From Candidatus Saccharimonadota bacterium (GTDB taxonomy: Bacteria; Patescibacteriota; Saccharimonadia; Saccharimonadales; JAXHMH01), in the NCBI GenBank assembly GCA_034521515.1, contig JAXHMH010000002.1:344379-408378 (forward strand): a stretch of 64,000 nt of DNA, read 5' to 3'. Made by a program: the position numbers and the translations under genes. Under the pieces are notes generated by a model. It was not told the origin of the DNA, ran no database searches, and saw only the letters and a program-made list of their open reading frames with translations. Of the stretch, positions 5,519-56,951 are shown in pieces (position 1 is the first letter of the stretch; each line of letters starts with the position of its first letter).

Positions 5519-5558
5519 TTGACTTTAAGTTTAACTCGAGTTAAACTTGAACCATATG
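5519..5558 (+). promoter_or_regulatory. Promoter/operator of the Phd-VapC operon, leaderless configuration
   Basis: TTGACT (5519-5524), 17-nt spacer, TAAACT (5542-5547), then ATG at 5556, 8 nt after the -10. There is no SD. An 18-bp perfect palindrome GTTTAACTCGAGTTAAAC (5529-5546) overlaps the spacer and the -10. Confidence 0.6.
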
Positions 5559-5822
5559 AAAACTATATCTGCTAAAGAGCTGCGTGACAACCTTGGCGAA
5601 ATAACTAAACGGGTGAGCGCCGGCGAACATATCTACGTAAGCTACAGAAATAAACTGTCTTTCAAGCTAGAACCAGCGACCCCTCCAAAGCCCGCGCGTA
5701 AAAAGCTGGCTGGCCTAGAAGCCTTTTTGGCGGCACCAAAGAAGCCTTCTCAGCACAATCCGGACAAACCCGCAAAAGAAATATATCACGAGCTTCTGGA
5801 TGAAAAATATGGCTCCAAGTAA
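5556..5822 (+). CDS. Type II antitoxin, Phd/YefM family
   Basis: The N-terminus MKTISAKELRDNLGEITKRVSAGEHIYVSYRNKLSFKLEP is typical of Phd/YefM. It is small and overlaps the downstream PIN toxin gene. The ORF-track TTG at 5547 is less likely than ATG 5556. Confidence 0.75.
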   Translation: MKTISAKELRDNLGEITKRVSAGEHIYVSYRNKLSFKLEPATPPKPARKKLAGLEAFLAAPKKPSQHNPDKPAKEIYHELLDEKYGSK

Positions 5823-6198
5823 GCTGTTTTTGGATGCCAATATCCTAATAGAGATTCTAGAATCCCGGCCAAAACATAAAAAAGCGGAAAAACTGTTGCT
5901 TTCAGGTGCGGGGAATTTGCATATCTCTACCCTGACATGCCACATTGCTGCTTATGTGTCCCGAAAAAGAATTGGTCTGGAAGTACTCGAACAATTCTTA
6001 GGCGACTATATTTGGCTAGAGCTGAAACCTGAGGACATAGCTTGGGCATTTGATAACCGCCGTGACAATGACTTTGAAGACGCCCTGCAGATTGCCATGG
6101 CTGTAAGAAGTGGTTGTAGCGTGTTTTATACCCTAGATAAGCAACTCGTCAATGCCTATGCTACCTTGCCCACCCTGGAAGTAAAGTTACTCAAATAG
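5800..6198 (+). CDS. vapC: Type II toxin, PIN-domain VapC family
   Basis: PIN acidic-residue pattern: LFLDANILIE near the N-terminus, DFEDALQIAMA, and TLDKQL near the C-terminus. 132 aa, with a 23-nt overlap with the antitoxin gene. Confidence 0.75.
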   Translation: MKNMAPSKLFLDANILIEILESRPKHKKAEKLLLSGAGNLHISTLTCHIAAYVSRKRIGLEVLEQFLGDYIWLELKPEDIAWAFDNRRDNDFEDALQIAMAVRSGCSVFYTLDKQLVNAYATLPTLEVKLLK

Positions 6199-6212
6199 CA
6201 TAAGTATTTACT

Positions 6213-6240
6213 CAGCACTCTGTACTGTGTACTCTGTACT
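6213..6240. repeat. Heptad tandem tract (cagcact ctgtact gtgtact ctgtact)
   Basis: Four consecutive 7-nt units lie directly between the TA cassette and the ATG (6245) of the PrgI-like gene. Confidence 0.75.
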
Positions 6241-6244
6241 TACA

Positions 6245-7366
6245 ATGGCAACATATAAAGTAATATCAGATATCGAAGCAGAAGATAAACTGCTGGGGCC
6301 GCTGACACTCAGACAGTTTATCTATGCATGTATTGTCGTGGTATCGGGTTATATTGCATTTCGCCTTATATTTGTTAGTTGGCTGCTAGTATTGCCGCTA
6401 CTGCCAATCATGATATTTTTTGGTTTATTGGCGTTTCCATTTACCAAAGATCAACCGGCGGAAGTCTGGTTATTGGCGCGTTTGCGGTTTTTCTTAAAAC
6501 CACACTTACGAATCTGGAGCCAAGACGGCATACAAGAGCTAGTATCTGTTACTGCCCCTAAATTACCAGAAAAGCAGCTTACCAAAGACTTTTCCCAGAC
6601 CGAAGTAAAAAGCCGTCTAAGGGCTTTGGCAGATACAATTGATAGCCGTGGATGGGCAGTCAAGAACGTCAACGTTAATCTAACTGGCCAACCATCCGCC
6701 GCAAACGGTGCATCAGATCGGCTCGTCCAGGCCACGTCAACGCCTCAACCGGTTGCCGATATCGATATTGGAGCATCCGATGACATGCTGGATGAACAGT
6801 ATAACCCCCGCGCACAGTCTCTCGATAAACTCATAAACGCCTCCGGTCAAGCGCACCGGCAGCAAATAGTGCAACAGATGAAGCAGGCTCCCCAACAGAC
6901 GCAGGAACCGGCAGCTAATTACTGGTTTATGAACCAACCATCCGGACAACCGCAACCAGGCTACAACACCGGTAAAGGTACCGTAATCACGCCAGGAAGC
7001 AACGACCAAAAACCCTCAAACCAACAACCAACCACCCAAGAGGAACAAGCCTTGCTCGAGAAAATCCATAAATCAAAACAGCAGCCACAACCTGGCTCCA
7101 GTCATATCAAGACTATCCAACCCATCGATCAGAATAACCCCAATCCTGCGCAAACAACACAACCGCAACCAGAAGCTCCTAATCAAGCCAACACCCCACA
7201 ACAAGCTACTAACGAACATCCCCAAACCAGCCCCCAAAAAACACAGCCCGATCCAGCCCTATTAGAACTTGCCCATAACGACGATCTGAATGTCGAAACC
7301 ATAGCCCGCCAGGCCAACAAGCACAACGACGATGACCCGGAGGAAGTGGTAGTATCGCTACATTAA
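6245..7366 (+). CDS. PrgI-family (VirB3-like) T4SS membrane protein with long Q/P-rich C-terminal tail
   Basis: N-terminus MATYKVISDIEAEDKLLGPLTLRQFIY followed by two hydrophobic helices, the PrgI-family pattern. It lies immediately upstream of VirB4-like genes. The C-terminal ~180 aa are Q/P/N-rich low complexity. ATG 6245 is preferred over track GTG 6227 because the duplicated fragment at 5374 begins at the same ATG. Confidence 0.55.
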   Translation: MATYKVISDIEAEDKLLGPLTLRQFIYACIVVVSGYIAFRLIFVSWLLVLPLLPIMIFFGLLAFPFTKDQPAEVWLLARLRFFLKPHLRIWSQDGIQELVSVTAPKLPEKQLTKDFSQTEVKSRLRALADTIDSRGWAVKNVNVNLTGQPSAANGASDRLVQATSTPQPVADIDIGASDDMLDEQYNPRAQSLDKLINASGQAHRQQIVQQMKQAPQQTQEPAANYWFMNQPSGQPQPGYNTGKGTVITPGSNDQKPSNQQPTTQEEQALLEKIHKSKQQPQPGSSHIKTIQPIDQNNPNPAQTTQPQPEAPNQANTPQQATNEHPQTSPQKTQPDPALLELAHNDDLNVETIARQANKHNDDDPEEVVVSLH

Positions 7367-7368
7367 GC

Positions 7369-7403
7369 TGAAGTACTTAGTACATAGTCCTCAGTACCAA
7401 GTA
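7369..7403. repeat. Heptad tandem tract (gtac-type: gaagtac ttagtac atagtcc tcagtac caagtaa)
   Basis: Five 7-nt units lie between the PrgI-like stop and the 3' end of the four-helix-bundle gene. Confidence 0.65.
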
Positions 7404-7418
7404 AAAGCCACTCAACTT

Positions 7419-7769
7419 CTACGATGGTAATTTACGTATAAACCCTGACAGAAGCTTACTGACTTCAATAACCTCAGAAAGCAGTTTCTTTTGATTTTTG
7501 TCGTTAAGATAACCTAAATCTTTAGCAACAATAAGCATCGACTCAACTTCAAACGCTGATCCTTTGGCAATATACAGATAGTTTCTGAGAGATTTGTTGC
7601 TTTGTTTTGCATAACCTTCGGCAATGTTGTTCATAATCGATACAGCTGCGCGTTGAATCTGATCCCTGAACCCGTAATCCTTGCATGTACTAAAAGAACC
7701 GTAAACATCTGTCGTTAATTCGCGAGCTTTTTGCCACGCAATTATGTCTTTAAATGATTCAATACCCAC
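7419..7769 (-). CDS. Four-helix-bundle protein (23S rRNA intervening-sequence protein family)
   Basis: Shows AWQKARELTTDVY, NNIAEGYAKQS and AKGSAFEVESML, signatures of the PF05635/TIGR02436 family. 116 aa, GTG start. It is antisense to the surrounding T4SS genes. Confidence 0.8.
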   Translation of the reverse strand: MGIESFKDIIAWQKARELTTDVYGSFSTCKDYGFRDQIQRAAVSIMNNIAEGYAKQSNKSLRNYLYIAKGSAFEVESMLIVAKDLGYLNDKNQKKLLSEVIEVSKLLSGFIRKLPS

Positions 7770-7801
7770 TAATTCATTCTACCATCATTTAGTTACTAAC
7801 A

Positions 7802-7836
7802 TGTACTAGGTACTAGGTACTGTGTACTCCGTACTT
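7802..7836. repeat. Heptad tandem tract (tgtacta ggtacta ggtactg tgtactc cgtactt)
   Basis: Five phase-locked 7-nt units lie upstream of the four-helix-bundle gene. The CTAG-containing units give stops on both strands. Confidence 0.8.
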
Positions 7837-7898
7837 GGAGGCTTTGTTCTCTCGCGATTTTCCTCTATACTTAAGCTTATAATCTCCTCTTTCTGAGG

Positions 7899-8783
7899 GT
7901 GGGAAACGTTTATTTCATGAATCCTAATTCACCAAACCAACAACCACAACAAAACCAGCCTGCTGCCAACCAACAACAGGGCTATACTCCAGCCGGACAA
8001 CCTGCCTCCGGCCAAGTTAACGCACCCCAACAGCAACCAGCTCCCGCTAAAACCAATCCAAACAGCACGCAAAACTCCATGGAAATTGCCGAAATCCGCG
8101 ATGGGCTGGTGATCATGAATGACGGCAGCTTCCGATCAGTTGTGATGGCAAAGTCAATAAACTTTGACTTGATGAGCAACGAGGAGCGCGAAGCCGTTGA
8201 GTACAGTTATCAAGGCTTTTTAAACTCTTTGTACTTTCCGGTACAGATTTTTGTAAGGTCACAAAAAGTTGATTTGCGGCCGTATATTGAACGGCTTGAT
8301 AAAATTCGCACCGAGCACGACAATATGCTATTAGCGCTCATGATGGAGGATTACATTAATTTTATCGGTGATTTAAGTATGCAGACTAATATTATGGATA
8401 AGAAGTTTTATATTATCATCCCGTATTTCCCGTCAGTTGATGTTCAAAAAGCACTTACTCAGAGCAAGAATTTATTCACCGGAATTACCAGCATGTTTAA
8501 TAAAAATGAGCAGCATGTGGTTGTCAATGAACAAGATCTCAACAAGGCCAAAGATGAACTACGCAACCGTGTTCAGGCAGTGCTCGGCGGTTTACAACAA
8601 TCTGGCGTTCAAGGTCTGCCACTAGATACTCAGGAACTTATTGAGCTGTATTACGATTCATACAATCCAGATACTGCCACCAGACAGCAGCTGAAAAACT
8701 TCAACGATCTAACTGCTCCTATTGTTACACGCGGTGAAGGTCAGGCAGTAAACCCTAGTTTAGAAAGGGAGCTTGATCAATAA
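7899..8783 (+). CDS. VirB4 N-terminal-domain-like protein (first half of an apparently split VirB4)
   Basis: After a Q/P-rich N-terminus comes EIRDGLVIMNDGSFRSVVMAKSINFDLMSNEEREAVEYSYQGFLNSLYFPVQIFVRSQKVDLRPYIERL. This resembles the N-terminal region of Gram-positive VirB4/TraE-type ATPases. The stop overlaps the next ATG (TAATG at 8781-8785). Confidence 0.5.
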   Translation: MGNVYFMNPNSPNQQPQQNQPAANQQQGYTPAGQPASGQVNAPQQQPAPAKTNPNSTQNSMEIAEIRDGLVIMNDGSFRSVVMAKSINFDLMSNEEREAVEYSYQGFLNSLYFPVQIFVRSQKVDLRPYIERLDKIRTEHDNMLLALMMEDYINFIGDLSMQTNIMDKKFYIIIPYFPSVDVQKALTQSKNLFTGITSMFNKNEQHVVVNEQDLNKAKDELRNRVQAVLGGLQQSGVQGLPLDTQELIELYYDSYNPDTATRQQLKNFNDLTAPIVTRGEGQAVNPSLERELDQ

Positions 8784-10699
8784 TGCTCGGCAAGAAGAAA
8801 TCCGATACTCAAACTGATCCGGTCGCCCTAGCGCAAGCACAACGTGCCCGTGAGCAGCAGGAGGTTACTGCCGCTTTCCAAAAGGGCATAACGGCACTGC
8901 GCGATTTTATTGCTCCTGCTTCACTGGAGTTTAAGGGTACTCACTTCCAAATCGGCACTCGTTTTGCCCGTACGTTTTACGTTTACGGATACCCACGCCA
9001 AGTATTTACCGGCTGGATATCCAGTATGGTCAACCTCGATGAGGTGATGGATTTGAGTATATTTATCTATCCGGTCGAGAGCCAGGTAATACTAGAAAAC
9101 TTGCGCAAAAAAGTTTCCCAGATGGAGGCTGGCATCCAGATCGATGCCGAGAAAGGGCGTGTCCGCGACCCCGGCAGGCAGGCCGCCATCCAAGATGCCG
9201 AAGAAATGCGCGACAAATTACAGGTAGGCGAAGAGCGTTTTTTCCGTTTCGGATTTTATTTCACAGTTTACGGTGGCAGCATGGACGAGCTTGAATTTGT
9301 CACCCATAAGGTCGAGTCAGTTCTCGGTCAACAATTAATTTACTCAAAACCTGCCAGCAGCCAACAAGAACAAGGTCTTAACAGTACATTGCCGCAGTTC
9401 AGCGATCAATTACAAATCAGGCGAAACTTCAGCACCGGCGCGTTAAGTACCAGCTTTCCATTTACCAGCGCAGACCTTACACAGGATGAGGGCATCTTGT
9501 ATGGCATAAATATGCACAATTCCGGGCTAGTTATTTTTGACCGTTTCTCTCTAGAAAACGGCAACTCGGTGGTGTTTGCAAAATCCGGTGCCGGCAAATC
9601 GTTCACTGTTAAATTAGAGGCGCTGCGTAGCATGATGTTTGGTACTGAAGTATTTATTATTGACCCGGAAAACGAGTACCAGCGCATGGCAGAAGCCGTT
9701 GGTGGAGCTTATGTCCGGCTTAGTCTTAACTCTGGCACTCGACTTAACCCATTTGATTTACCACAAGTCATAGACACCGACGAGGCGGATAACGCTTTAC
9801 GCAGCAACCTCATAACACTTCATGGGCTATTAAGATTAATGATGGGTGGAGCGCAGACGCAGATGCTTGAGGGCACCGCAACAACTATGCCCGCCCTCGC
9901 ACCATCAGAAGAAGCCGACCTAGACGCCGCGTTAATTGAAACCTATGCCAAGGCCGGTATTACCAACGACCCACTCACCCATAAATCACAGCCCCCTACC
10001 ATAAACGACCTATATGACACATTGCTACACATGGGTGGCAGCGGCCCGCAACTTGCTCAACGCCTCCGTAAATACACTACCGGTACATTCGCCGGCATAT
10101 TCAGCCAACAATCCAACGTAGATATCAACAACCAGTTTGTAGTGTTCAACATCCGTGACCTAGAGGACGAGCTGCGCCCCGTGGCTATGTATATTGTCCT
10201 AAACTACATCTGGAACAAAACCAAATCCGACCAAAAAAGGCGCATGCTAGTAGTTGATGAGGCCTGGCAGCTCATGAAATATGAAGATTCTGCTAACTTC
10301 TTGTTTAGCCTGGCAAAACGCGCTCGCAAATATAACCTTGGTATCACCACGATAACTCAGGACGTAGAGGACTTTATGGGATCGCGCATGGGTCGGGCTA
10401 TTGTGGCCAACGCCAGTATGCAGATACTACTCAAGCAGTCTCCATCGGCTGTAGATGTACTAAGTGACGTGTTCAAACTTACCAGCGAAGAAAAGAAACG
10501 CCTCAGTCAGTTCCCGGTCGGCCAAGGTCTGTTTTTTGCCGGGCAAAACCATGTCCATATCCAGATTGCCGCTAGCCCAACCGAAACCGGTTTAATCACG
10601 ACCAATCCGCAACAAGTACAAGCCGCCGAACAGGGCGGTGAGCTTAATCAGCCCCAAGGTACAATTGACCTTCAAAATCGCCTAACACCAGGCGTATAA
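8783..10699 (+). CDS. virB4: VirB4-like T4SS ATPase (middle and ATPase domains)
   Basis: Walker A is FAKSGAGKSF and Walker B is RMLVVDEAWQLM. The VirB4-type middle region is FARTFYVYGYPRQVFTGWISSMVNLDEVMDLSIFIYP. Also present is RKYNLGITTITQDVEDF. Confidence 0.85.
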   Translation: MLGKKKSDTQTDPVALAQAQRAREQQEVTAAFQKGITALRDFIAPASLEFKGTHFQIGTRFARTFYVYGYPRQVFTGWISSMVNLDEVMDLSIFIYPVESQVILENLRKKVSQMEAGIQIDAEKGRVRDPGRQAAIQDAEEMRDKLQVGEERFFRFGFYFTVYGGSMDELEFVTHKVESVLGQQLIYSKPASSQQEQGLNSTLPQFSDQLQIRRNFSTGALSTSFPFTSADLTQDEGILYGINMHNSGLVIFDRFSLENGNSVVFAKSGAGKSFTVKLEALRSMMFGTEVFIIDPENEYQRMAEAVGGAYVRLSLNSGTRLNPFDLPQVIDTDEADNALRSNLITLHGLLRLMMGGAQTQMLEGTATTMPALAPSEEADLDAALIETYAKAGITNDPLTHKSQPPTINDLYDTLLHMGGSGPQLAQRLRKYTTGTFAGIFSQQSNVDINNQFVVFNIRDLEDELRPVAMYIVLNYIWNKTKSDQKRRMLVVDEAWQLMKYEDSANFLFSLAKRARKYNLGITTITQDVEDFMGSRMGRAIVANASMQILLKQSPSAVDVLSDVFKLTSEEKKRLSQFPVGQGLFFAGQNHVHIQIAASPTETGLITTNPQQVQAAEQGGELNQPQGTIDLQNRLTPGV

Positions 10700-10703
10700 C
10701 AAG

Positions 10704-10731
10704 TTATGAGCTATGAGTGTTGAACTATGAG
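10704..10731. repeat. Heptad tandem tract (ttatgag ctatgag tgttgaa ctatgag)
   Basis: Four 7-nt units lie directly after the virB4 stop. A TGA in each unit gives stops in all three + frames. An inverted copy of the unit (ctcataa) occurs at 10945-10951 on the far side of the truncated gene. Confidence 0.65.
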
Positions 10732-10951
10732 CAAAGCAGCAGAAGGTTACGCCAAACAAATCGACCGATCTTTTAGGCGCTTTTTGCTCACTGCCAAAGG
10801 GTCAGCTTCAAAAGTGCAGTCTATGCTTATACTGGCCGATGACATACAATATACATCAGAGGAGCAACTAGGATCACGCTTCACGTTAGCGAAAGAGGCG
10901 GCAAAGATTATAGGCGGACTTAAAAATAAACTCCATTCTCAAAACTCATAA
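10727..10951 (+). pseudogene. Truncated four-helix-bundle protein gene (C-terminal ~70 aa only)
   Basis: AEGYAKQIDRSFRRFLLTAKGSASKVQSMLIL aligns with residues ~50-116 of the 7419..7769 product. About 45 N-terminal residues (helices 1-2) are missing, and only 27 nt separate it from virB4. Confidence 0.7.
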
Positions 10952-10963
10952 CACATATCTATC

Positions 10964-15008: not shown

Positions 15009-15722
15009 ATGTATAACGTAAATAAAAAACATATTATCCTGGCAATCTTAGTGCTGTCCGCGCTACTGTTAATATTTGGAATAAAAATATACTTGGATAA
15101 CCAACGTTTCCAAGTCTTCTCGACTACTCCATCACTTACACAAACCGTCGCAACCAGCACTTCTGTAATAAAGCTTGACTTTAATAAACCGCTTTCAGAT
15201 GATTCTTCCTATAACAGAACGCTTATTAAGGATCTTGATGAGCTAGCATATATACATGATGTTGAGCGAGCTGGTGATTCACTGCTGGTTAGGCTGGGCA
15301 CACTCAACTCCGGACAAGAATACACTGTTACATTTAATGATATTATTTCAGCTGATGGTGATGTTATATCGGACTTAAGTTATACATTTTTTGTTGACTA
15401 TATTCCGTACGATCGACTATCTGAAGCACAGAAAGCTTTGGAGCTACAAGAAACTGATCGAGGGAGTGAAGATGACCCAGTGCTTAACTATGTACCACAC
15501 TCAACATTACGGTATGAAATTAATCCTATACAGAGAACCAACAACGACGGTGTATATTCGCTTGGCTTGGACATAAAAATTATCCTTTCTAACGCCGACA
15601 GGTCTAACCAAGATGCCGCTATCGCTACATATAAAGAAATGGCTATGGATTACTTGCGTTCTGTTGACATCAACCCAGACGATTATGATATTTACTACCG
15701 TATTATTGAACCGACTCTTTAG
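15009..15722 (+). CDS. Membrane-anchored hypothetical protein, possible Ig-like ectodomain
   Basis: N-terminal TM (HIILAILVLSALLLIFGI), then TPSLTQTVATSTSVIKLDFNKPLSDDS ... GQEYTVTFNDIISADG, which resembles SbsA/Big-type Ig-like domains. It is the last gene of the + strand cluster, and its 3' end overlaps the recF 3' end convergently. Confidence 0.4.
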   Translation: MYNVNKKHIILAILVLSALLLIFGIKIYLDNQRFQVFSTTPSLTQTVATSTSVIKLDFNKPLSDDSSYNRTLIKDLDELAYIHDVERAGDSLLVRLGTLNSGQEYTVTFNDIISADGDVISDLSYTFFVDYIPYDRLSEAQKALELQETDRGSEDDPVLNYVPHSTLRYEINPIQRTNNDGVYSLGLDIKIILSNADRSNQDAAIATYKEMAMDYLRSVDINPDDYDIYYRIIEPTL

Positions 15723-16785
15723 TTTTGTTTGTCGGAATAACGTGGCACTGGTCTAGAAAATGCTGCACAACGATATCAGCATCCGTGGTAGTTATAAACG
15801 TTTGATAACCAGCCAAAAACTCGGTTAACGCCATGCGCCGGGCGCCATCCAGCTCACTAAACACATCGTCAAGTAGTAGTATCGGTTTCTCATCGCGCAC
15901 TTCCTCGACCAACCGCACTTCAACAATCTTCAACCCAAGTAGTAGCGTCCGTATCTCGCCGCGCGACCCAACCTCATCCGCCGGATGATTGTCCAACGTA
16001 ATGTGCATATCGTCACGGTGAGGGCCGTACCCGGTAAAGCCACGCTGTATATCCAAGTCCTGCGTGGCTTCCAGTTTGCTCAACATCTGTGACTCATACT
16101 GATGCCCGCTACAAGCTGTTTTATACTTAACACCCACCGTAATCTTACTGTCTGACAGTTGTCGGTAGATAGTCTGGAGTTCTTGATTAATTCGGTTCAC
16201 CAGTGCCAGTCGTTCTTTAGCGATTGCACCACCTAGTTCTGCCAGCCTGATATTCCAGGCAAAAATCTGAGTGTTAACATGGCTATCGCCAGACTTTAAT
16301 AACGCATTACGTTGCGCCAACGTCCGCTTATATTGGCGGCGAAGCTGCCCGAAACCGACCACCATCTGCTCCAACATATCGTCCATAAACTCGCGCCGGC
16401 GTTCAGGTGATCCGGTAAGCAGCCGTAAATCATCCGGCTCAAACAATACAACCGGTACGGTTTTATTCAGCGACAAACGCTTGTATGTCTTATCCGCCAA
16501 AACAAAACTTTTCTGAACCCGATCGGCACCCTCTATTGTTTCTAATTTAACCGTGCGCGTCCCGTGGCTAGTAAATGCGTCGAGGCGCGACCACGGAGCT
16601 TTGTGGCGAACCAACTCACTATCCCGAGCCCTGTATGAACTACCCAGACACGCTACCAATAGCGCCTCCAGCAAATTTGTTTTACCGCTAGCGTTTGGGC
16701 CAACCACAATGTTAACCCCAGGCTCAAACTCAAAACTATCGTTATGATATGACCTAAAGTCCTGCAAGTTAAGCGCTTCAATCAC
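15703..16785 (-). CDS. recF: DNA replication and repair protein RecF
   Basis: Walker A is GPNASGKTNLLEAL and the Walker B-like motif is ILLLDDVFSELD. GTG start. It sits in the dnaA-dnaN-recF synteny. Confidence 0.9.
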   Translation of the reverse strand: MIEALNLQDFRSYHNDSFEFEPGVNIVVGPNASGKTNLLEALLVACLGSSYRARDSELVRHKAPWSRLDAFTSHGTRTVKLETIEGADRVQKSFVLADKTYKRLSLNKTVPVVLFEPDDLRLLTGSPERRREFMDDMLEQMVVGFGQLRRQYKRTLAQRNALLKSGDSHVNTQIFAWNIRLAELGGAIAKERLALVNRINQELQTIYRQLSDSKITVGVKYKTACSGHQYESQMLSKLEATQDLDIQRGFTGYGPHRDDMHITLDNHPADEVGSRGEIRTLLLGLKIVEVRLVEEVRDEKPILLLDDVFSELDGARRMALTEFLAGYQTFITTTDADIVVQHFLDQCHVIPTNKTKESVQ

Positions 16786-17158
16786 GCTTAGTCTCCCGTC
16801 GCTTGTCGCTTGTCGCTAGCTTACCAATAAACCCTGTCAGTAATTTTGAGATCTCTATTGAGATACCTGTGAATTGTTTGTACTCATTTTGATGAATTTT
16901 ATTTGCTGCTAGCGCAATATGAAGCATGGAGCGGACTTCCGCACATGAGCCACGTGCAATTACTAAAAACTGCCTAAGCTCCTTGTCCGAACTCCTGTCA
17001 AACCCTTCGGCAATATTGTTAGTGATAGATAAGCAAGCTCTCATAATCTGATCCTTAAACGATAGATCTCTCTCATACTTCAACTCCTTACTAAGCCCTA
17101 TGTATAGCTCTTCGCCTTTTTGCCAGGCAATCACATCCTCAAAATTCCTTATACGCAT
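16778..17158 (-). CDS. Four-helix-bundle protein (23S rRNA intervening-sequence protein family) inserted between dnaN and recF
   Basis: Shows VIAWQKGEELY, NNIAEGFDRSS and ARGSCAEVRSML. The C-terminal 10 aa (ATSDKRRETKRD) are encoded by a heptad tract, and the stop overlaps the recF GTG (GTGATTGA). Confidence 0.8.
   Translation of the reverse strand: MRIRNFEDVIAWQKGEELYIGLSKELKYERDLSFKDQIMRACLSITNNIAEGFDRSSDKELRQFLVIARGSCAEVRSMLHIALAANKIHQNEYKQFTGISIEISKLLTGFIGKLATSDKRRETKRD
16797..16817. repeat. Heptad tandem tract (cgtcgct tgtcgct tgtcgct) inside the 3' end of the four-helix-bundle ORF
   Basis: Three 7-nt units, stop-free on the minus strand, are translated as a C-terminal extension. Confidence 0.7.
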
Positions 17159-17210
17159 AACTATATTGTACTGGAGACTAAAATGACTGGTAACTAGTGA
17201 CTTAAAAGCT

Positions 17211-18302
17211 TTAGCTTTTCAGTGGCATAATCACATGCAAATAATCATCAGTGGCAATATCGTAGAGCAGTGATGGCTCGAGCTTATCGTTAAACCCAAA
17301 CCGCACCGTTTCACCAGATAACACATTAAGTGCATCAAGCAAGTAGCGCGAATTTAGCGTAATAACACCATCGCCCTTAACTTCAGCCGATGCGTTAGAA
17401 GTGTTTTCACCCAACTGAGAAGCGATGGAACGAATACTGAGTTGTTGATCCTTTTCGCTTAGATTAATTGTTACACTACCGGCGCTTTCCCTGGCAAATA
17501 AGCTTGATACTTTGGTTACATTGGTCAGTTCGCTGCGTTTTAAGGTAGCACTGGTGGCAAAATCTCGCGGTATAAGTTTGCGATAATCAGGATATTTACC
17601 GTCAATCAACCTGGTCACTAACTCAACATCACCCACCTTAAACAACACCTGCTGGTCATCATGCGACACCTCGACATCATCTTCGCCGTCAGACACAATC
17701 CGTAGCAAATCTTGCATAGCGTTAGCCGGTATAAGTAGATTTATGTTTTCTTTTGTTTTGTGTAGCTTCTTTTCAGCTAAACGGTAACTATCGGTTGCAA
17801 CCATATATAAATTACCTTCGTGTGTGTGTAGATACACACCGGTTAAAACTGGGCGGGCTTCGTCGTTAGAAGCCGCTACGATGACTTGTTGTAAGGCGGT
17901 TTTTAGGGTTTTTCCGGGTATAGTCCATTTGTTAGCTTGCTTAATCGCTGGCATTACCGGAAAATCCTCGGCTGATATACCGTTGATAGTTGAATTGTAT
18001 TTATCGGTTGTGATGTGTAAGCGGTTTTCTTCAAGTTCTAAATCGATAACGCCGCTCGGTAAACTACCTACAAAATCCTGCATAAGCCTAGCTGGTACAG
18101 TAATCGACCCTTCTTCGCTAACCTTTGACCCGATGTAGTGGGTGATTGCAATATCCAGGTTTGTTGCCGCAATACTCAAACGGTTATCAACTGTTTTTAT
18201 AAGCACATTGGCAAGTACAGGGAGTGTCCCACGCGTATTAGCAACTCGAGCCACGGTTTGTAGTGCTTTTGTTAAGTTTTCCTGGGTGACTTGTAGCTTC
18301 AT
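17211..18302 (-). CDS. dnaN: DNA polymerase III beta sliding clamp
   Basis: The N-terminus MKLQVTQENLTKALQTVARVANTRGTLPVLANVLI is typical. 363 aa, downstream of dnaA. Confidence 0.92.
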   Translation of the reverse strand: MKLQVTQENLTKALQTVARVANTRGTLPVLANVLIKTVDNRLSIAATNLDIAITHYIGSKVSEEGSITVPARLMQDFVGSLPSGVIDLELEENRLHITTDKYNSTINGISAEDFPVMPAIKQANKWTIPGKTLKTALQQVIVAASNDEARPVLTGVYLHTHEGNLYMVATDSYRLAEKKLHKTKENINLLIPANAMQDLLRIVSDGEDDVEVSHDDQQVLFKVGDVELVTRLIDGKYPDYRKLIPRDFATSATLKRSELTNVTKVSSLFARESAGSVTINLSEKDQQLSIRSIASQLGENTSNASAEVKGDGVITLNSRYLLDALNVLSGETVRFGFNDKLEPSLLYDIATDDYLHVIMPLKS

Positions 18303-18580
18303 TTTAGACTCCTTATTACTGATTTATATAAATAGTTTTAGTTATAGTAAGGCCTGTGTAAACCGTGTAAAACTCATATTTTACAGTGGTGTAAATACGT
18401 AAAAACCGTAGGAAAACCCTGCGTATAGATTGGGTATAAAATGTGCGCAAGTCGGGTGTTTTGTACCAGGATAACTAACCTACAAGCGCCTGTGAACAAC
18501 TGCACCAAACTACCCACAGGTTGTACAAGTATTTGTGCACAACTTACCCCCAGGTTTTCTGTACGCGAACTATAAGACTG

Positions 18581-18664
18581 CAACCTACTAACTACCAATT
18601 CCTTCACCCCATCTACCATATACCAACTACTAACTACCAACTGCCATCTACCAACTACCAGCCT
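18581..18664. repeat. Heptad tandem tract, 12 units (ccaacta/ccatcta/ctaacta type) abutting the dnaA stop
   Basis: The tract is 84 nt in unbroken 7-nt register. On the minus (dnaA sense) strand the units read tagttgg/tagatgg, giving TAG in all frames. It is the same unit family as 54585-54605. Confidence 0.8.
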
Positions 18665-20030
18665 ACGCATAAAGGCGCTCCTTTATCTGAGTTATAGCTG
18701 TCTTAATATTAGAATCGTAGTTGGCTTCTTTTTCAATCTTCTCCACGGAATGAATGGCGGTTGTGTGGTCTTTCCGGCCAAGTTCTCGGGCAATTTTAGG
18801 GAAACTCAAATGCAACTCGCTTCTTAACATATACATAGCAACCTGTCTTGGCACGACGATATCTTTATCTCGTTTTGGCCCCAGTATGTCGTCCATAGGT
18901 AATTGGAAATGTTTAGCAGTACGCTCAATGATCTGTTTTGCACTCAAATGTTTTGGGCGAGATTTATTGCCGCCGAGAACCGCATTGGCAATATGTAAAT
19001 CTGGTTCTAAACTGCGCATTTCACAGAATGCCAGCAATTGGTTTAAGGCGCCTTCCAGCTCCCTAATGTTGGTCTGAAAATTGTTCGCTAAAAATTCTAC
19101 GACGGGAGCAGGCAATTCAACCCCATGCGTGTCCGCCTTAGTTTGAATGATCGCGCAACGAGTTTCAAAATCCGGCGTTTGCATATCAATGCTCATACCC
19201 CACGCAAATCGTGAACGGAGTCGCTCTTCCAGGGTAGGTATGTCTTTTGGCGGCTTGTCAGAGCTAATAATAATCTGTTTGTTAGCTTGATGGAGCGCGT
19301 TAAAAGTGTGAAAGAACTCTTCCTGAGTCTTTTCTTTGCCAGCTATAAACTGCACATCGTCGATGATAAGCACATCTGCGCCGCGGTAATAACCGGCAAA
19401 ATCAGTGTTCTTCTTATATCTAATGGCGTCTAGAAATTCCTGCACGAACTGTTCTGTTGAAACATACACCACGTGAGCGTTAGGGTTGTTGGCTCGCACT
19501 TCGTTGCCGACAGCTTGGATTAAATGCGTTTTGCCAATACCAACGCCACCATATAAAAACAACGGGTTATACTTTGACCCTGGTTTTTGAGCAATCGCCT
19601 GACAGGCGGCATACGCCAACTCGTTTGCCGAACCGACAATAAAATTTTCAAACGTATAGCGATCATTTAAACCTTGGCGGTAAGTGTGCGTGAGAGTTGA
19701 TTTGGTGGCTTGTTTTGATTGAGGTTTCTCGGCTCGATTCTTTAGAAGCACCGGTTCATCATAAGTGGGTTTTTTAGAAGGCGTTATGCTGGAATGGATT
19801 TTATACTCGATCTGCGACGGTGAAACACCGTTCTTTTTCAAAGTATCCGTTACCAGTTGATTATATTTCTGTTCAAGTTGTTGTTTGATAAATACATTTG
19901 GTACGCCAACTATAAATAAATCTTTCTCTTGGCGAAGGAGTCGGGTGTTCTTAAACCAGGTAACAAAACTCGCACGTGATACAGACAGCTCTATTTCGCC
20001 GAGTACAGCTTGCCATAGGCGATCTTGCAT
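18663..20030 (-). CDS. dnaA: Chromosomal replication initiator DnaA
   Basis: Walker A is GGVGIGKTHL and Walker B is LIIDDVQF. Sensor motifs are present, and the C-terminal DNA-binding helix is DHTTAIHSVEKI. Confidence 0.95.
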   Translation of the reverse strand: MQDRLWQAVLGEIELSVSRASFVTWFKNTRLLRQEKDLFIVGVPNVFIKQQLEQKYNQLVTDTLKKNGVSPSQIEYKIHSSITPSKKPTYDEPVLLKNRAEKPQSKQATKSTLTHTYRQGLNDRYTFENFIVGSANELAYAACQAIAQKPGSKYNPLFLYGGVGIGKTHLIQAVGNEVRANNPNAHVVYVSTEQFVQEFLDAIRYKKNTDFAGYYRGADVLIIDDVQFIAGKEKTQEEFFHTFNALHQANKQIIISSDKPPKDIPTLEERLRSRFAWGMSIDMQTPDFETRCAIIQTKADTHGVELPAPVVEFLANNFQTNIRELEGALNQLLAFCEMRSLEPDLHIANAVLGGNKSRPKHLSAKQIIERTAKHFQLPMDDILGPKRDKDIVVPRQVAMYMLRSELHLSFPKIARELGRKDHTTAIHSVEKIEKEANYDSNIKTAITQIKERLYA

Positions 20031-20087
20031 AATCCCTCCGTGTTTTTAGTTACCTCAACAGCACCAATGATAACAGAAATAAGGCAG

Positions 20088-20212
20088 TTTTCCACAGAGA
20101 GAATTTTTAACAATAAATTTGTATAGAAAAATCCAAAAACAGGGGCAGTTTTATACACAGGCAAAAACGACCCCTGTTAAACTGTGGATAATTACTGAGG
20201 AAAAGTGGATAA
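20088..20212. promoter_or_regulatory. oriC-type DnaA-box cluster upstream of dnaA
   Basis: Four boxes were read directly: TTTTCCACA (20088-20096), TTATACACA (20151-20159), TGTGGATAA (20183-20191, a perfect reverse-complement of TTATCCACA) and AGTGGATAA (20204-20212). An AT-rich stretch lies at 20098-20140. Confidence 0.7.
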
Positions 20213-20299
20213 ACTATAGCTTTTCGGGAAAAAACATTGTGAAAATCACTAAAAAACGACCGCAACCGGTCGTTTAATAGGCACCCTGCACAGTACCGT

Positions 20300-20437
20300 C
20301 TAAGCGGACAGTTTGGCGCGGCCTTTGTTGCGGCGGCGCTTTAGTACGGCACGACCGGTCTTGGTGTGCATACGCTTAATAAAACCGTGCACGCGAGCAC
20401 GCTTTCGTGTCTTTGGTTGGAACGTTCGTTTTGGCAT
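20300..20437 (-). CDS. rpmH: 50S ribosomal protein L34
   Basis: Below the ORF-track size cutoff. Reverse translation gives [45 protein letters not shown] (45 aa), a canonical L34 sequence. Confidence 0.92.
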
Positions 20438-20962: not shown

Positions 20963-21919
20963 ATGTTTGAAAATCTTATTGTACTGCCCATATTTAACTT
21001 GCTCGTTTTTATCTATGCAATTTTGCCAGGGCATAACTTTGGGCTCGCACTGATTATATTCACGGTTGTTGTGCGCATGCTGATGTGGCCGCTCATTAGA
21101 AAACAGCTTCATCACGCTAAAGCAATGCGTAAACTTCAACCAGAGATTAAGAAAATTAAACAGGCTACCAAGGGCGATCGACAAAAAGAGTCCATGATGC
21201 TCATGCAGCTGTACAAGGAACGTGAAGTTAGTCCGTTTAGTAGTCTCGGTGTTCTGGCAGTCCAGCTGGTTATATTCATAGGGCTCTACCAGGGTTTGAT
21301 CCGAGTTATTGAGGATCCGCAGGCGCTAATTGTGCACTCCTATAGCTGGATTGCAAACCTAGGGTGGATGCAACAACTGGCTGCCGATATCGGGCAATTT
21401 GACGCCACGCTTTTTGGACTGGTTGATTTGTCGCGGAGTGCTCTAGGATCCGGCGGTCTGTATATCCCAGCTCTACTACTAGTAATCGGTAGTGCCGCCA
21501 CACAGTATTATCAGAGCAAGCAACTCATGCCCGATGATAAAAATTCACGCGGTTTGCGGCAGATTATGCGTGAAGCCAGTGCTACTGGTAAACAAGCCGA
21601 CCAATCCGAAGTACAGGCTGCTACCGGGCGTATGATGCGCTACTTTATACCCGTTATGATATTCGTTGTTACTATTGGGCTGGCTTCAGCACTGGCGCTT
21701 TATTGGTTCACTAGCGGTATAGTTGCCTATCTCCAGCAATCTCGTATCTTAGGCCAGGATAAGGATGAGCTGGAAGAGCTAGCCCATAAAGACGACAAGA
21801 AGAACGATAAACAAAACGCCAAGAAACAAGTCATAGAAGGCGAAGTTATCCAAAAACCAAAAACCAAAAACCAAAAGACCAAAAAGACCTCCAAATCTAA
21901 AAAAAGGAGGAAACGATGA
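20963..21919 (+). CDS. yidC: Membrane protein insertase YidC (short, Gram-positive type) with lysine-rich tail
   Basis: Shows GLALIIFTVVVRMLMWPLIRKQLHHAKAMRKLQPEIKKIKQ and multiple TM helices. The basic C-terminal tail is KPKTKNQKTKKTSKSKKRRKR. It follows rnpA. Confidence 0.88.
   Translation: MFENLIVLPIFNLLVFIYAILPGHNFGLALIIFTVVVRMLMWPLIRKQLHHAKAMRKLQPEIKKIKQATKGDRQKESMMLMQLYKEREVSPFSSLGVLAVQLVIFIGLYQGLIRVIEDPQALIVHSYSWIANLGWMQQLAADIGQFDATLFGLVDLSRSALGSGGLYIPALLLVIGSAATQYYQSKQLMPDDKNSRGLRQIMREASATGKQADQSEVQAATGRMMRYFIPVMIFVVTIGLASALALYWFTSGIVAYLQQSRILGQDKDELEELAHKDDKKNDKQNAKKQVIEGEVIQKPKTKNQKTKKTSKSKKRRKR
21850..21884. repeat. Heptad tandem tract inside the yidC tail-coding region ((ccaaaaa)x3, ccaaaag, accaaaa)
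   Basis: Three perfect and two imperfect 7-nt units encode QKPKTKNQKTK. Confidence 0.75.
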
Positions 21920-54410: not shown

Positions 54411-54724
54411 TAATAGGAAATAGGAAATAGGAAATAGGAAATAGGAAATAGGAAATAGGAAATAGGAGTTGGGAGGGGTGAGACTAGAGACTAGAGACTA
54501 GAGAATTGATAGTTAATAGATGATAATTAATAGGTGATAGATAATAGGTGAGAATTGATAGTTGATAGGTGATGGAAGGTGGAAGATGGTAGTTGGTAGG
54601 TGGTAGGCGGGGTGGTGAGACTTGAGACTAGAGACGTGAGGGGTGATAGATAATAGGTGAGAATTAATAGATGATAGGGGGTGGAAGTTGTCAGTGGGCT
54701 GTGGTCTGTTGTCAGTTGTCTGTC
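54411..54724. repeat. Heptad tract of ~45 phase-locked 7-nt units in several sequence blocks
   Basis: The blocks are: (aaatagg)x8 perfect at 54411-54466; gagacta x3 plus one degenerate unit at 54480-54507; gatagtt/aataggt-type units; gatggta/ggtggta-type units; acttgag/actagag/acgtgag; and gtcagtg/gtctgtt/gtcagtt/gtctgtc. The tract was parsed by hand with no register loss. Confidence 0.9.
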
Positions 54725-54774
54725 CACAACCTGTTCACTGACGACTGATTACGGGCTACTAGCGAATGCTACAA

Positions 54775-54813
54775 TTGACATAAATCCTTCCGTTATATAT
54801 ACTTTGGTATATG
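54775..54813 (+). promoter_or_regulatory. Promoter of the DinJ/YafQ-like operon, leaderless configuration
   Basis: TTGACA (54775-54780), 17 nt, TATACT (54798-54803), then ATG at 54811, 7 nt after the -10. There is no SD. Confidence 0.6.
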
Positions 54814-55101
54814 AAAACCGATGATAGTAAGAACACCATCTTAAACATTAAGTTAAGCAAATCGCTAAAGCTAGAGGCTCAAAGTATTGCCAAAGAAATG
54901 GGCATACCGCTAACTACTGTCGTTAAGGCCGGCCTTAACGACTTTGTTAGAAGTAGATCGGTCACTTTATCTACATCTCCTAAACTTAAGCCAGAAGTTG
55001 AGCGTAAACTAGTTGAAGCGGCGCAAGAAGCCAGACAAGGAAAGAATATATCTGACAAGTTCACTACACTAGAAGAAGGATTCGACTGGCTGGATGCATG
55101 A
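54811..55101 (+). CDS. Type II antitoxin, RelB/DinJ-like
   Basis: 96 aa. ILNIKLSKSLKLEAQSIAKEMGIPLTTVVKAGLNDFV is RHH/DinJ-like. There is a 4-nt overlap with the toxin gene. Confidence 0.65.
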   Translation: MKTDDSKNTILNIKLSKSLKLEAQSIAKEMGIPLTTVVKAGLNDFVRSRSVTLSTSPKLKPEVERKLVEAAQEARQGKNISDKFTTLEEGFDWLDA

Positions 55102-55364
55102 TCGAAGATATTCGTTATTCCAAAAAGTTCAAGAAACAGTACAAAAAGTTACCATTTAAAATCCAACAACGGACAAAAGAGCGCATTAGGTTGCTTTATG
55201 AAGATCCGTTTAATCCTATTTTGAAGCACCACATACTATCAGGTAATCTCAGGGGCGTACATAGTATAAATATAACCGCCGATTACAGAGCGCTTTACAT
55301 AGAAATAAACAATAAGAAAATAATGTTCGATATGATAGGGGCTCACTCACAATTGTATAAATAG
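55098..55364 (+). CDS. Type II toxin, RelE/YafQ family
   Basis: IRYSKKFKKQYKKL...LKHHILSGNLRGVHSINITADYRALYIEINNKKIMFDMIGAHSQLY. It is a paralog of 30534..30794. Confidence 0.75.
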   Translation: MIEDIRYSKKFKKQYKKLPFKIQQRTKERIRLLYEDPFNPILKHHILSGNLRGVHSINITADYRALYIEINNKKIMFDMIGAHSQLYK

Positions 55365-55382
55365 AATATAGTATTTCGTATC

Positions 55383-55501
55383 TAGGAGGTAGTAGATGGG
55401 GGCGGTGAGACTAGAGACGTGAGACTAGAGACTAGAGACTTGAGACTTGAGACTAGAGAGGTGAGGGGTGATAGATGATAGTTAATAGATGATAGTTAAT
55501 A
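55383..55501. repeat. Heptad tract of ~17 units (ggtgaga ctagaga cgtgaga ... gatgata gttaata)
   Basis: A gagac-type block is followed by a gata/taata-type block, forming the spacer between two TA cassettes. Confidence 0.85.
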
Positions 55502-55518
55502 TTCTACTTCCGTATATT

Positions 55519-55556
55519 TTGACAGCATGCCGTCATGACGGTAAAATGGCATCATG
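55519..55556 (+). promoter_or_regulatory. Promoter/operator of the RHH/RelE operon, leaderless configuration
   Basis: TTGACA (55519-55524), 17 nt, TAAAAT (55542-55547), then ATG at 55554, 6 nt after the -10. A 12-bp palindrome CCGTCATGACGG (55530-55541) lies in the spacer. Confidence 0.6.
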
Positions 55557-56053: not shown

Positions 56054-56186
56054 GTAGACGCATGAGACATGAGACTGGAGACTAGAGACATGAGACGTGA
56101 GACTAGAGACTAGAGGGGTAATAGATGATAGGTAATAGGTAATAGGTAATAGATAATAGATGATAGGTAATAGGTAATAGATGATG
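56054..56186. repeat. Heptad tract of ~19 units (catgaga ctggaga ctagaga ... ggtaata gatgata)
   Basis: A gagac-type block is followed by ggtaata/gataata/gatgata units. The cysQ ATG codons (56181-56189) lie in the last units. Confidence 0.85.
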
Positions 56187-56951
56187 ATGGATAAATTACT
56201 AGAGCAAGTTATAGGGATCGCGCAGCAAGCCGGGGACGCCATTATGGAGGTTTATCACTCTGATGAGCACGGTGTAGAAACAAAAGAAGATGATTCACCG
56301 CTCACCATTGCCGATAAAGCGGCCAACGACATCATTGTGCGGGAGCTAGAAAAAATATCTAAACTCCCGATTATTTCTGAAGAAAACGAGCAACGCGAAG
56401 GTGCAGACACCTTCTGGTTAGTAGATCCGTTGGATGGTACCAAGGAATTCATTAAGAAAAACGGCGAATTTACCGTTAATATCGGGCTTATTCATAATAA
56501 AAAGCCGATACTTGGCGTGGTATACGCACCGGACAAAGGTGTGACTTACGTTGGCTCCGAGGCTGGTGCTTTCAAATATGAGGCCGGTCAAGAAACCAAA
56601 ATTACCGCGCACCATGATGAGGCGATGCCAACAATCGTCGCTAGCCGTTCGCACCGTGACGAACGAGTCGATGCGCTACTTGAGAATATTGGCGAGCACA
56701 AGATTGTGAGTATGGGATCATCCTTCAAACTATGCCTCGTAGCGGACGGTACAGCCATGCTATATCCGCGCTTAGCTCCGACCTACCTATGGGATACGGC
56801 TGCAGCCGATGCAGTTGTACGGGCGGCAGGCGGGAGAGTGCAAAACCTGGCTGGCGAGGATTTGACGTATGACCCAGCAAAAGATATGAAAAACCCATTT
56901 TTTGTGGTTAGTACTAAAAACTGTATTGATTGGCAAAGATACTTAGGCTAA
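56181..56951 (+). CDS. cysQ: 3'(2'),5'-bisphosphate nucleotidase CysQ (PAP phosphatase)
   Basis: Inositol-monophosphatase-family motifs ISEE and WLVDPLDGTKEF, with C-terminal WDTAAADAVV. 256 aa. Confidence 0.8.
   Translation: MMMDKLLEQVIGIAQQAGDAIMEVYHSDEHGVETKEDDSPLTIADKAANDIIVRELEKISKLPIISEENEQREGADTFWLVDPLDGTKEFIKKNGEFTVNIGLIHNKKPILGVVYAPDKGVTYVGSEAGAFKYEAGQETKITAHHDEAMPTIVASRSHRDERVDALLENIGEHKIVSMGSSFKLCLVADGTAMLYPRLAPTYLWDTAAADAVVRAAGGRVQNLAGEDLTYDPAKDMKNPFFVVSTKNCIDWQRYLG

Follow-up and report, generated by a model that had tools for sequence, protein, structure and literature searches.

A heptanucleotide tandem repeat behind dnaA in a Saccharibacteria genome, probably a solitary long simple sequence repeat

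The window analysed here is the whole stretch of 64,000 nucleotides taken from a Saccharibacteria metagenome-assembled genome (MAG; GCA_034521515.1, contig JAXHMH010000002.1), and the element in question is an array of twelve 7-nt registers, reading (TGGTAGT)n along the sense strand of dnaA and occupying positions 18581..18664 on the minus strand, directly behind the dnaA stop codon. The array is a real tandem repeat specific to period 7. On balance, we consider it to be a solitary heptanucleotide simple sequence repeat (SSR) of the kind known as long SSRs (LSSRs) or short tandemly repeated repetitive (STRR) sequences, a type of repeat that is known elsewhere in cyanobacteria, Xanthomonas, Beggiatoaceae and Bacteroidetes and is newly seen here in Saccharibacteria.

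Structure of the heptad array

Read on the plus strand in a 7-nt register, positions 18581-18664 consist of the units CAACCTA, CTAACTA, CCAATTC, CTTCACC, CCATCTA, CCATATA, CCAACTA, CTAACTA, CCAACTG, CCATCTA, CCAACTA and CCAGCCT. On the dnaA strand, the TAG stop codon (18665-18663) is followed by GC and then by TGGTAGT, TGGTAGA, TGGCAGT, TGGTAGT, TAGTAGT, TGGTATA, TGGTAGA, TGGGGTG, AAGGAAT, TGGTAGT, TAGTAGG and TTGCAGT; the array begins 2 nt 3' of the stop, with the G-rich strand being the dnaA strand. TGGTAGT is matched at five or more of the seven positions by 10 of the 12 units, the remaining two being degenerate, and Tandem Repeats Finder (TRF) places the best-preserved core at 18609-18660, with a period of 7, 7.4 copies and 80% matches. 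The composition of the sense strand is G35 T28 A19 C2, with a GC content of ~44%.

The lag-7 self-match over 18581-18664 reaches 49 of 77 positions, compared with at most 40 for the best 84-nt stretch in 200 shuffles of the 64-kb window; when the array's own letters were shuffled 20,000 times, the mean was 25 and the highest value 42. At lags of 5 to 11 other than 7, a self-match at the level of the array was reached nowhere in the window. The first-pass annotation of this DNA had described a 12-unit heptad tract abutting the dnaA stop and had assigned it to the same family as a tract at 54585-54605. Register reading, TRF and the lag-7 comparison confirm the former, and unit comparison confirms the latter, with a sister array on the plus strand at 54573..54607 reading TGGAAGG, TGGAAGA, TGGTAGT, TGGTAGG and TGGTAGG.

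The array shares its period with many others. Period 7 accounts for 13 segments and 886 nt of the window, while every other period from 3 to 12 accounts for at most 5 segments and 159 nt, and period 7 leads likewise in 878 kb of DNA from relatives. This Saccharibacteria genome is unusually rich in heptamer SSRs. The array thus shows the features of a heptanucleotide LSSR or STRR-type repeat: tandem 7-nt units in three or more copies and beyond chance, an intergenic location, membership in a set of many dispersed arrays and an excess of period 7.

The dnaA-dnaN spacer and its origin module

The array lies in the 360-nt spacer between dnaA (455 aa, 18663..20030, minus strand; Pfam Bac_DnaA, E=3.9e-71) and dnaN (363 aa, 17211..18302, minus strand), in a region where the cumulative GC skew has its minimum (~16-20 kb in the window). 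The densest cluster of DnaA boxes in the window is located upstream of dnaA at 20088..20246 and includes three perfect boxes, with 3 perfect and 5 one-mismatch boxes counted over 20051-20400. The region 18301-18600 ranks second in box density; its cluster of six sites within one mismatch of TTWTNCACA, all of them one-mismatch boxes, spans 18355..18542, and the array is not part of it. The two clusters flanking dnaA suggest a bipartite origin, like that of Bacillus or Helicobacter.

For comparison, 80 loci were recovered with DnaA, all from Saccharibacteria/Saccharimonadales MAGs with 74-82% identity, and 78 of them were used for the analysis of spacers. A heterocystous cyanobacterium, which the STRR-like heptads might have suggested as the host, was rejected on the basis of these relatives. 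These 78 spacers have a median length of 257 nt (interquartile range 247-287) and contain 494 box-like sites within one mismatch of TTWTNCACA, with a median of six per spacer, as opposed to ~50 in shuffles. Box polarity in them is fixed, with TGTGNAWAA distal and TTWTNCACA proximal to dnaN. The remark of the first-pass annotation that a second origin module would lie in this spacer is therefore supported, given a dense box cluster that is conserved across the 78 relatives. A part for the array itself in a DNA unwinding element (DUE) or an incC-like module was not supported.

Since the first DnaA box follows the dnaA stop at a median of +29 nt in the relatives and at +124 in the window, the array represents inserted or expanded sequence that lies between the dnaA stop and the first box and does not belong to the origin module. 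DnaA-trios, as found in the oriC of B. subtilis, have a period of 3. Because the array lies outside the box cluster, contains no match to a DnaA box, is not AT-rich and does not have a period of 3, it is neither a DUE nor a DnaA-trio element nor incC, and of the attributes of an oriC module (boxes, an AT-rich unwinding stretch, period-3 trios and conservation) it displays none. An AT-rich stretch beside the ribosome-binding site of dnaN (18303..18345) is, judging from its sequence, a better candidate for the unwinding element.

Heptad tracts at the same position in relatives

Heptad tracts are absent from the post-dnaA position in about 70 of the 78 relatives and present there in about 8. Seven relatives carry one that starts 0-12 nt after the dnaA stop, with units that differ from genome to genome: TGGAGGT, TGGAAGG, TGGTATT and more in L041; TGGAAGG, TGGAAGA, TGGTAGG and more in L047; TGGTAGT, TGGGGTT and TGGAAGA in L055; (TGGAAAA)5 in L077; AGGAATC, AGGAATC and AGGAAAT in L075; repeated GCAGCGA GCAATGA in L054; and AGTCNNN in L070. 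By hand tally, the purine-rich or G-rich strand is the sense strand in all seven purine-skewed post-dnaA tracts, namely those of six relatives and of the window; the tract of L070 has no clear skew. In a near-identical strain with an identical DnaA (L081, a Logan assembly and the only one available), the tract is exactly the same as that of the window. An identical DnaA is on record from a Saccharibacteria MAG at NCBI, with no corresponding record of DnaN, and the next best match to DnaA among 5.8 billion proteins has 83% identity.

In L047, the last bases of dnaA together with the TTTGGAAGGTGGAAGATGGTAGGTGGAAGATGG array are present twice at 7366-7500, ~97 nt apart, and the post-dnaA tract is thus duplicated along with the end of the gene. 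This arrangement reflects a tandem duplication or else an insertion that produced a long target duplication inside the array. Behind the duplicated array comes a second one, (ACTCTTT/GCTCTTT)5.

Given these comparisons, the history of the array would comprise the insertion or expansion of ~85-100 nt into the only unconstrained slot, that between the dnaA stop and the first DnaA box. The array may have arisen, and may be resized, through slipped-strand mispairing of 7-nt units, and it would decay by point mutation, a step proposed because it has two degenerate units and 80% matches. In transcripts, it would probably form the 3' tail of the dnaA mRNA, poor in C and without structure, presumably with no dedicated role in translation termination or in origin firing.

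Stop codons and strand orientation

The sense strand of the array contains 10 stop triplets, five of them in the dnaA frame and five in one other frame, and the first in-frame stop is located four codons past the dnaA TAG. The third frame is open throughout, so the first-pass statement that TAG occurs in every frame was incorrect. This density of stops is readily accounted for: the strand is composed of T and purines, stops make up three of the four possible T-purine-purine triplets, and the period of 7 distributes them over the frames, so that selection is not needed to explain it. The stops are thus a by-product of a T and purine strand and of a repeat length that three does not divide.

It had also been claimed, for this tract and those at 54411-56186 and 10704-10731, that the stop-dense strand coincides with the coding strand of the flanking genes, and this stands only in part. 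It agrees with the seven of seven purine-skewed post-dnaA tracts. For tracts between co-directional genes in the window and the relatives, a hand tally gave ~14 with the purine-rich strand in sense and ~5 in antisense orientation, a count that includes four mutually non-independent blocks at 54-56 kb and compares with a baseline of 56% purine-rich-sense for ordinary co-directional intergenic DNA. Antisense arrays do occur in the lineage (at 6208 in the window, at 7509 in L047 and at 3878, 4306 and 4641 in L055), and the purine-rich-sense orientation within the lineage is a trend rather than a rule. Outside it, a metagenome scan for (TGGWAGN)3 returned 80 loci with contig GC contents of 0.33-0.71, in which genes were called crudely, as longest open reading frames (ORFs) with a filter on third-position GC (GC3) for high-GC contigs. 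In these loci, 67 of 86 (TGGWAGN)n arrays were intergenic, and those between co-directional genes were oriented 13 in the same and 13 in the opposite direction. The further idea of selection against read-through, which the annotation had derived from the orientation pattern, was not sustained in view of the open frame, the ~70 of 78 tract-free relatives and this even split in the metagenome.

RNA structure, quadruplex and promoter predictions

The array RNA has less structure than shuffled versions of it (z=+2.26), among which 199 of 200 fold equally well or better, and no terminator-like site was found after dnaA; the array is thus neither an intrinsic terminator nor a structured RNA, and no Rfam family match was obtained anywhere in the window. 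A G-quadruplex (G4) is not predicted in the array, whose G-runs are GG only and whose minimum free energy (MFE) folds with and without the G4 option are equal, while the same folding model does predict one for a (GGGAAUC)6 control. A sigma-70-like match, TTGGTA-18-TATAGT, overlaps the distal end of the array, but such matches are near chance in the region (13 found against 6.9 +/- 2.9 expected).

IVP genes bracketed by heptad arrays

Other heptad arrays of the window are associated with genes of the IVP family (PF05635/S23p; TIGR02436, 'four helix bundle protein'). All three IVP-family ORFs of the window lie between paired heptad arrays; in two of these pairs, the inversion of the arms is clear. 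Cassette 1 (16778..17202, minus strand), inserted between dnaN and recF (15703..16785, minus strand), consists of an IVP gene at 16778-17158, a 5' array AGTCACT AGTTACC AGTCATT at 17168-17202 and a 3' array (AGCGACA)3 GGGAGACT at 16787-16817. Cassette 2 (7369..7836, minus strand) carries its IVP gene at 7419-7769, with a 5' arm (AGTACNN)5 at 7794-7836 and a 3' arm (NNGTACT)5 at 7369-7403; in the predicted RNA fold (both MFE and centroid), these arms form the terminal stem (z=-2.2), with 25-nt arms that are 80% complementary. Cassette 3 (10704..10959, plus strand) contains a 5'-truncated IVP ORF at 10727-10951 (PF05635, E=7.6e-11, profile positions 44-105) between arms of (TATGAGN) at 10704-10731 and (ACTCATN) at 10930-10959.

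The tracts at 10704-10731, 7802-7836 and 16797-16817 are among those listed by the first-pass annotation; none of them stands alone, each being one arm of an array pair that encloses a gene of the IVP family. The partner arm of the first two is the reverse complement and therefore opposite in polarity, and the arms match only weakly in the case of 16797-16817. Directional insertion, which had been offered as an explanation for tract orientation, finds some support in that several tracts are arms of inserted IVP cassettes, although not in the sense first proposed.

The dnaN-recF gap normally measures 12-35 nt, and an IVP gene is inserted there in L005, L011, L041, L047, L054 and L075 as well as in the window. 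The flanks of these insertions are inverted, with AAAGT/ACTTT in L041, L047 and L075 and ATAGT/ACTAT (period 8) in L011 and L054. The arm unit co-varies with the IVP subfamily, with 62-68% identity within and 41-56% between groups, and the DnaA+DnaN identities of the hosts are star-like (66-80%). Compared with 844 control genes, IVP genes have a higher periodicity on both flanks (Mann-Whitney p=3.6e-5). Moreover, the presence of an IVP gene at dnaN-recF is associated with that of a post-dnaA heptad tract ([[5,2],[1,66]], Fisher p=7.6e-6, phylogeny ignored).

The metagenome loci, picked solely for (TGGWAGN)3, include three IVP genes within 200 nt of an array (L118, L136 and L183), and those of L136 and L183 have TGGTAGC/TCGTAGC arms paired with GCTACSA arms. 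Among the metagenome TGGWAGN arrays, ~5-8 of 128 have an inverted partner within 1 kb and three have an IVP gene. A tblastn search of 72,556 plasmids with the IVP of the window returned 29 records, mostly from Nostocales, together with Riemerella, Azospirillum and Gemmatirosa. Sixteen of these plasmid IVP genes were sampled, from Nostoc, Anabaena, Calothrix, Scytonema, Stanieria, Geminocystis, Picosynechococcus, Pseudanabaena, Riemerella, Azospirillum and Gemmatirosa (L202-L220); a period-7/8 array flanks 15-16 of the 16, and the arms of 10 are inverted and complementary. Such arm pairs include GGAGTCA/TGACTCC in N. punctiforme, GGTGACA/TGTCACC in Anabaena 90, GGGTGTA/TACACCC in Calothrix, AAGGTTN/NAACCTT in Riemerella and GGAGATAA/TTATCTCC in Picosynechococcus.

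Control stretches of 50 kb contain few arrays, with a concentration at IVP genes: two of two arrays flank an IVP gene in Riemerella, three of four are at an IVP gene in Anabaena 90 pANA02, and two of six flank one in N. punctiforme pNPUN02, where a solitary GGAGTCA array is also located 7 kb from an IVP gene with GGAGTCA arms. The idea that any small accessory gene attracts arrays was rejected, as a VapC pair on pNPUN02 has none. The fourth array of pANA02, (TGGTAAT)3 (L212, 4004-4032), is situated in a diversity-generating retroelement, between avd and the gene for the reverse transcriptase; Avd is an IVP-family homologue and shares the fold family of IVP. Several plasmid IVP genes sit inside CRISPR-cas operons, in the orders cas6-IVP-cas4 and cas10-IVP-cmr3.

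The intervening sequence (IVS) published for the Coxiella burnetii 23S rRNA has tandem GACAGAT heptamers, of strain-variable copy number, before its S23p ORF, and RNase III cleaves at the first GACAGAT repeat within the terminal stem (Warrier 2016, PMC4990558). In Xanthomonas campestris ATCC 33913, GGGAATC array #15 (622956-622983) overlaps the start codon of XCC0516 (PMC4692102 supplement), and no homologue with a solved structure is closer to the IVP of the window than XCC0516 (PDB 2GSC); the tables of PMC4692102 may already contain further IVP-array pairs. Apart from the Coxiella IVS paper, our literature search returned no publication joining IVP or 'four helix bundle protein' with heptamer repeats.

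Comparison with known heptamer systems

STRR repeats of cyanobacteria were reportedly described by Mazel et al. in 1990. STRR1-3 have the units CCCCAGT, TTGGTCA and CAACAGT, and their hosts are heterocystous cyanobacteria. The arrays of the window resemble LSSR/STRR repeats in their tandem 7-nt units, mostly intergenic location, many dispersed copies, several unit families, specific over-representation of period 7 and lack of a known function. They differ in that the genome is of Saccharibacteria, within the candidate phyla radiation (CPR), with a size of ~0.7 Mb, and that the units are unlike STRR1-3; with the unit TGGTAGT and a Saccharibacteria MAG as host, the array is not an STRR1-3 repeat in the strict sense. 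Our literature search returned no publication pairing Saccharibacteria with heptanucleotide repeats. Heptamers are the commonest class of long SSRs in bacteria, and polymerase slippage has been proposed as their origin, according to the work of Mrazek, Guo and Shah (2007), which PMC4679880 and PMC4692102 cite.

The G-rich heptamer arrays of Xanthomonas and Nostoc (GGGAATC, GGGGA(T/C)T; Rehm 2015, PMC4692102) that lie 3' of genes are mostly found 0-50 bp past the stop, on the coding strand, with some overlapping the stop codon. The purine-rich-sense arrays just past the dnaA stop match this regularity. Inverted pairs are frequent among those arrays, whose length and sequence differ between related species at one intergenic site (PMC4692102). 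The array of the window agrees with them in position and strand but differs in its unit, in its lack of four or more runs of at least three Gs, having GG runs only, and in the absence of a predicted quadruplex.

The TAACTGA repeats of Beggiatoaceae, cyanobacteria and Bacteroidetes (MacGregor 2015, PMC4679880) have a 'forward' strand filled with stops, which limits their site and orientation near or in genes, and their host taxa overlap the IVP-rich taxa. These arrays are mostly located just upstream of starts and consist of 2-6 copies of a single unit (PMC4679880), whereas the array of the window is downstream of a stop, in a genome with many unit families. Finally, the Coxiella IVS (PMC4990558) is like the IVP cassettes of the window in having an ORF in the loop of a stem of terminal inverted repeats. 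The cassettes differ from it in residing in protein-coding operons (dnaN-recF and a type IV secretion cluster) instead of rRNA and in having whole heptad arrays as arms, and the dnaA tract differs in having neither a partner arm nor an ORF.

Alternative explanations

Several observations sit uneasily with a solitary SSR shaped by neutral slippage. Slippage is not observed, the sole near-identical strain having an identical tract. The recurrence of tracts in this slot with constant purine-sense polarity, and the near-identical runs in different species (L047 and 54573-54607 of the window), hint at something beyond it. In Nostoc, heptamer arrays near recF and recO altered reporter expression (bioRxiv 10.1101/2022.06.06.494920). 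The genomes with a tract are also strongly those with an IVP gene at dnaN-recF, which suggests a link to the cassette system. The array might accordingly belong to the IVS-like IVP cassettes, as a solo arm, a footprint or a landing pad, being either what remained once the gene and one arm had been lost or a site at which insertion is yet to occur, an interpretation we find doubtful but worth keeping in sight. The arrays paired around all three IVP-family ORFs of the window, two pairs clearly inverted, speak for it, as do the shared arrangement in six relatives with arm units that track the IVP subfamily, the periodicity of both flanks relative to the controls, the co-occurrence with post-dnaA tracts, the TGGTAGC/TCGTAGC arms of L136 and L183 and the solitary GGAGTCA array of pNPUN02. 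However, no inverted partner of the array was found in 16600-18700 and no IVP-like ORF in the dnaA-dnaN spacer; nothing like an IVP remnant or extra sequence stands beside the array, which itself explains the excess length of the spacer, and it is in its unit family, through L136 and L183, that it resembles a cassette arm. Moreover, the few partnered or IVP-linked arrays among the metagenome TGGWAGN arrays indicate that most are unrelated to cassettes, the Fisher test ignores phylogeny (albeit with star-like DnaA+DnaN identities), and the arm units of the IVP cassettes of the window (AGTAC, AGTCA, TATGAG) are unlike TGGTAGT.

Less probable still is that the array acts as a protein-binding platform, in RNA or DNA, that tunes the fate of the dnaA mRNA or the expression of dnaN. 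Bacillus HutP is a model for such an arrangement of repeated motifs, and a HutP-like reader of repeated UAG-N4/UGG-N4, KhpA/B or the heptamer-binding factor postulated in Nostoc would be candidates, although no candidate binding protein was identified here. The array is regular, unstructured and C-poor and would therefore be accessible, its slot recurs with constant strand polarity, a sigma-70-like match is located at its distal end, the Nostoc arrays had reporter effects (bioRxiv 10.1101/2022.06.06.494920), and MacGregor suggested binding of S1, Csp or CsrA for TAACTGA arrays (PMC4679880). Yet the units at this slot (TGGAAAA, AGGAATC, GCAGCGA and AGTCNNN in other species) have no common motif, most relatives have no tract and the promoter match is at chance level. 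A functional part in the origin, as an unwinding element, a DnaA-trio-like site in single-stranded DNA, a spacer or a G-quadruplex, seems highly improbable. The adjoining conserved box cluster and a G-rich strand with GG at every 7 nt would favour it, but the array has no DnaA-box match, a GC content of ~44%, a period of 7 instead of 3 and no predicted G4, unlike the (GGGAAUC)6 control, and is missing in the majority of relatives, where boxes begin immediately behind the stop. The idea that the array is kept since its stops catch ribosomes reading through or frameshifting at the end of dnaA is the one to which we give least credence, and it is largely refuted already. Five stops in the dnaA frame, beginning four codons on, five in a second frame and the coincidence of the stop-rich with the sense strand for several tracts of the window would fit it. 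Against it are the frame that is wholly open, the rarity of the tract among the relatives, the 0-1 stops in the same-slot tracts of L041, L077 and L033, a stop density expected from composition, the random orientation of TGGWAGN in the metagenome loci and the antisense arrays of the lineage. A solitary heptanucleotide SSR thus remains the explanation that we favour.

Other heptad repeats of the window

Besides the cassettes, the period scan identified a solitary array of the AGTAC family (6208..6245, minus strand) just after a Phd/PIN toxin-antitoxin pair. It belongs to the region of a type IV secretion-like cluster (5547-10699; PrgI-like, 6227-7366; VirB4/TraG-like ATPase, 8783-10699), which is interrupted by the Phd/PIN pair and by two IVP cassettes, and it is inverted relative to the IVP arm at 7369-7403 around the PrgI-like gene.

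Three composite heptad blocks are found on the plus strand at 54411-56192, where two toxin-antitoxin cassettes (54811-55364, with a YafQ/ParE-like toxin; ~55554-56031, with a ParE-like toxin) are inserted between sat/cysC and cysQ. Block 1 (54411..54727), after sat/cysC, reads (AATAGGA)8, (GAGACTA)n, (RATAGNT)n, (TGGWAGN)n and (TTGTCWG)n; block 2 (55385..55503), between the two cassettes, reads (GAGACNN)8 GAGGGGT (RATAGNT)5; and block 3 (56055..56192), which runs into the cysQ start, reads (GAGACNN)8 GAGGGGT (AATAGRT)10. The region opens with (AATAGGA)8, and the composite (GAGACNN)n GAGGGGT (RATAGNT)n, with four occurrences, precedes each toxin-antitoxin cassette and also follows the pair. This looks like cassette capture at heptad arrays or array duplication.

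Heptad repeats are also found within genes. Over 99 nt (31936-32034), (AAAAGTA)3.7, (CTCAAGT)4.6 and (TCAACTA)4 follow one another in frame in the gene of a 499-aa O-antigen-ligase-like (Wzy_C) membrane protein and encode a loop, the coding strand being the stop-free one. Arrays within genes necessarily use the stop-free strand as the coding strand, a point made by MacGregor for the TAACTGA repeats (PMC4679880). On the plus strand, rnpA, yidC and jag/khpB are located within the 15.7-22.4 kb region, and a (CCAAAAA)n array (21843-21887) forms the 3' coding end of yidC, encoding a Lys/Pro-rich C-terminal tail. It is likewise present at the end of yidC in L005 (4220-4259), L016 (1704-1731), L033 (3968-3996) and L072 (3546-3576) and is therefore a coding heptad repeat conserved across species.

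Implications

For annotation, the open frame of the array is of practical consequence. Together with the spacer, it creates a spurious ORF of 98-118 aa without a family match, of which the version in the window (98 aa, 18374-18670) has no Pfam match, and for L081 (3997-4353), the public assembly lists this spurious ORF as a gene of 118 aa. Similar spurious spacer ORFs are present in L033, L041, L054 and L075. Gene callers thus turn the open frames of arrays into false genes, and origin predictors should leave the tract out of oriC. The array also shows that dense stop codons need not imply selection.

Taken alone, the array is of minor importance, although it extends an unexplained class of heptanucleotide repeats to a CPR/Saccharibacteria genome. 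IVP/S23p genes form a large family without a known function; in each phylum sampled here, they are flanked by arms of period 7 or 8, as a rule inverted. Their association with inverted heptad arms was foreshadowed only by the Coxiella IVS. A broader proposal, to which we attach no more than a tentative value, is that heptad arrays, including the solitary ones, are cis-elements of widespread and hitherto unrecognized IVS-like selfish cassettes. Each cassette might consist of an S23p/IVP four-helix-bundle gene between inverted heptad arrays that pair into an RNase III-type stem. This stem could conceivably let the cassette sit harmlessly in operons, and solitary arrays would then be footprints or landing pads. 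If true, the ~35-year-old puzzle of STRR and heptamer repeats and the function-less IVP family would share one explanation, which would span Saccharibacteria, cyanobacteria, Bacteroidota and Xanthomonas/Coxiella. If solitary arrays do derive from cassettes, such an origin of STRR-type repeats would be testable in Nostoc, Xanthomonas and Riemerella.

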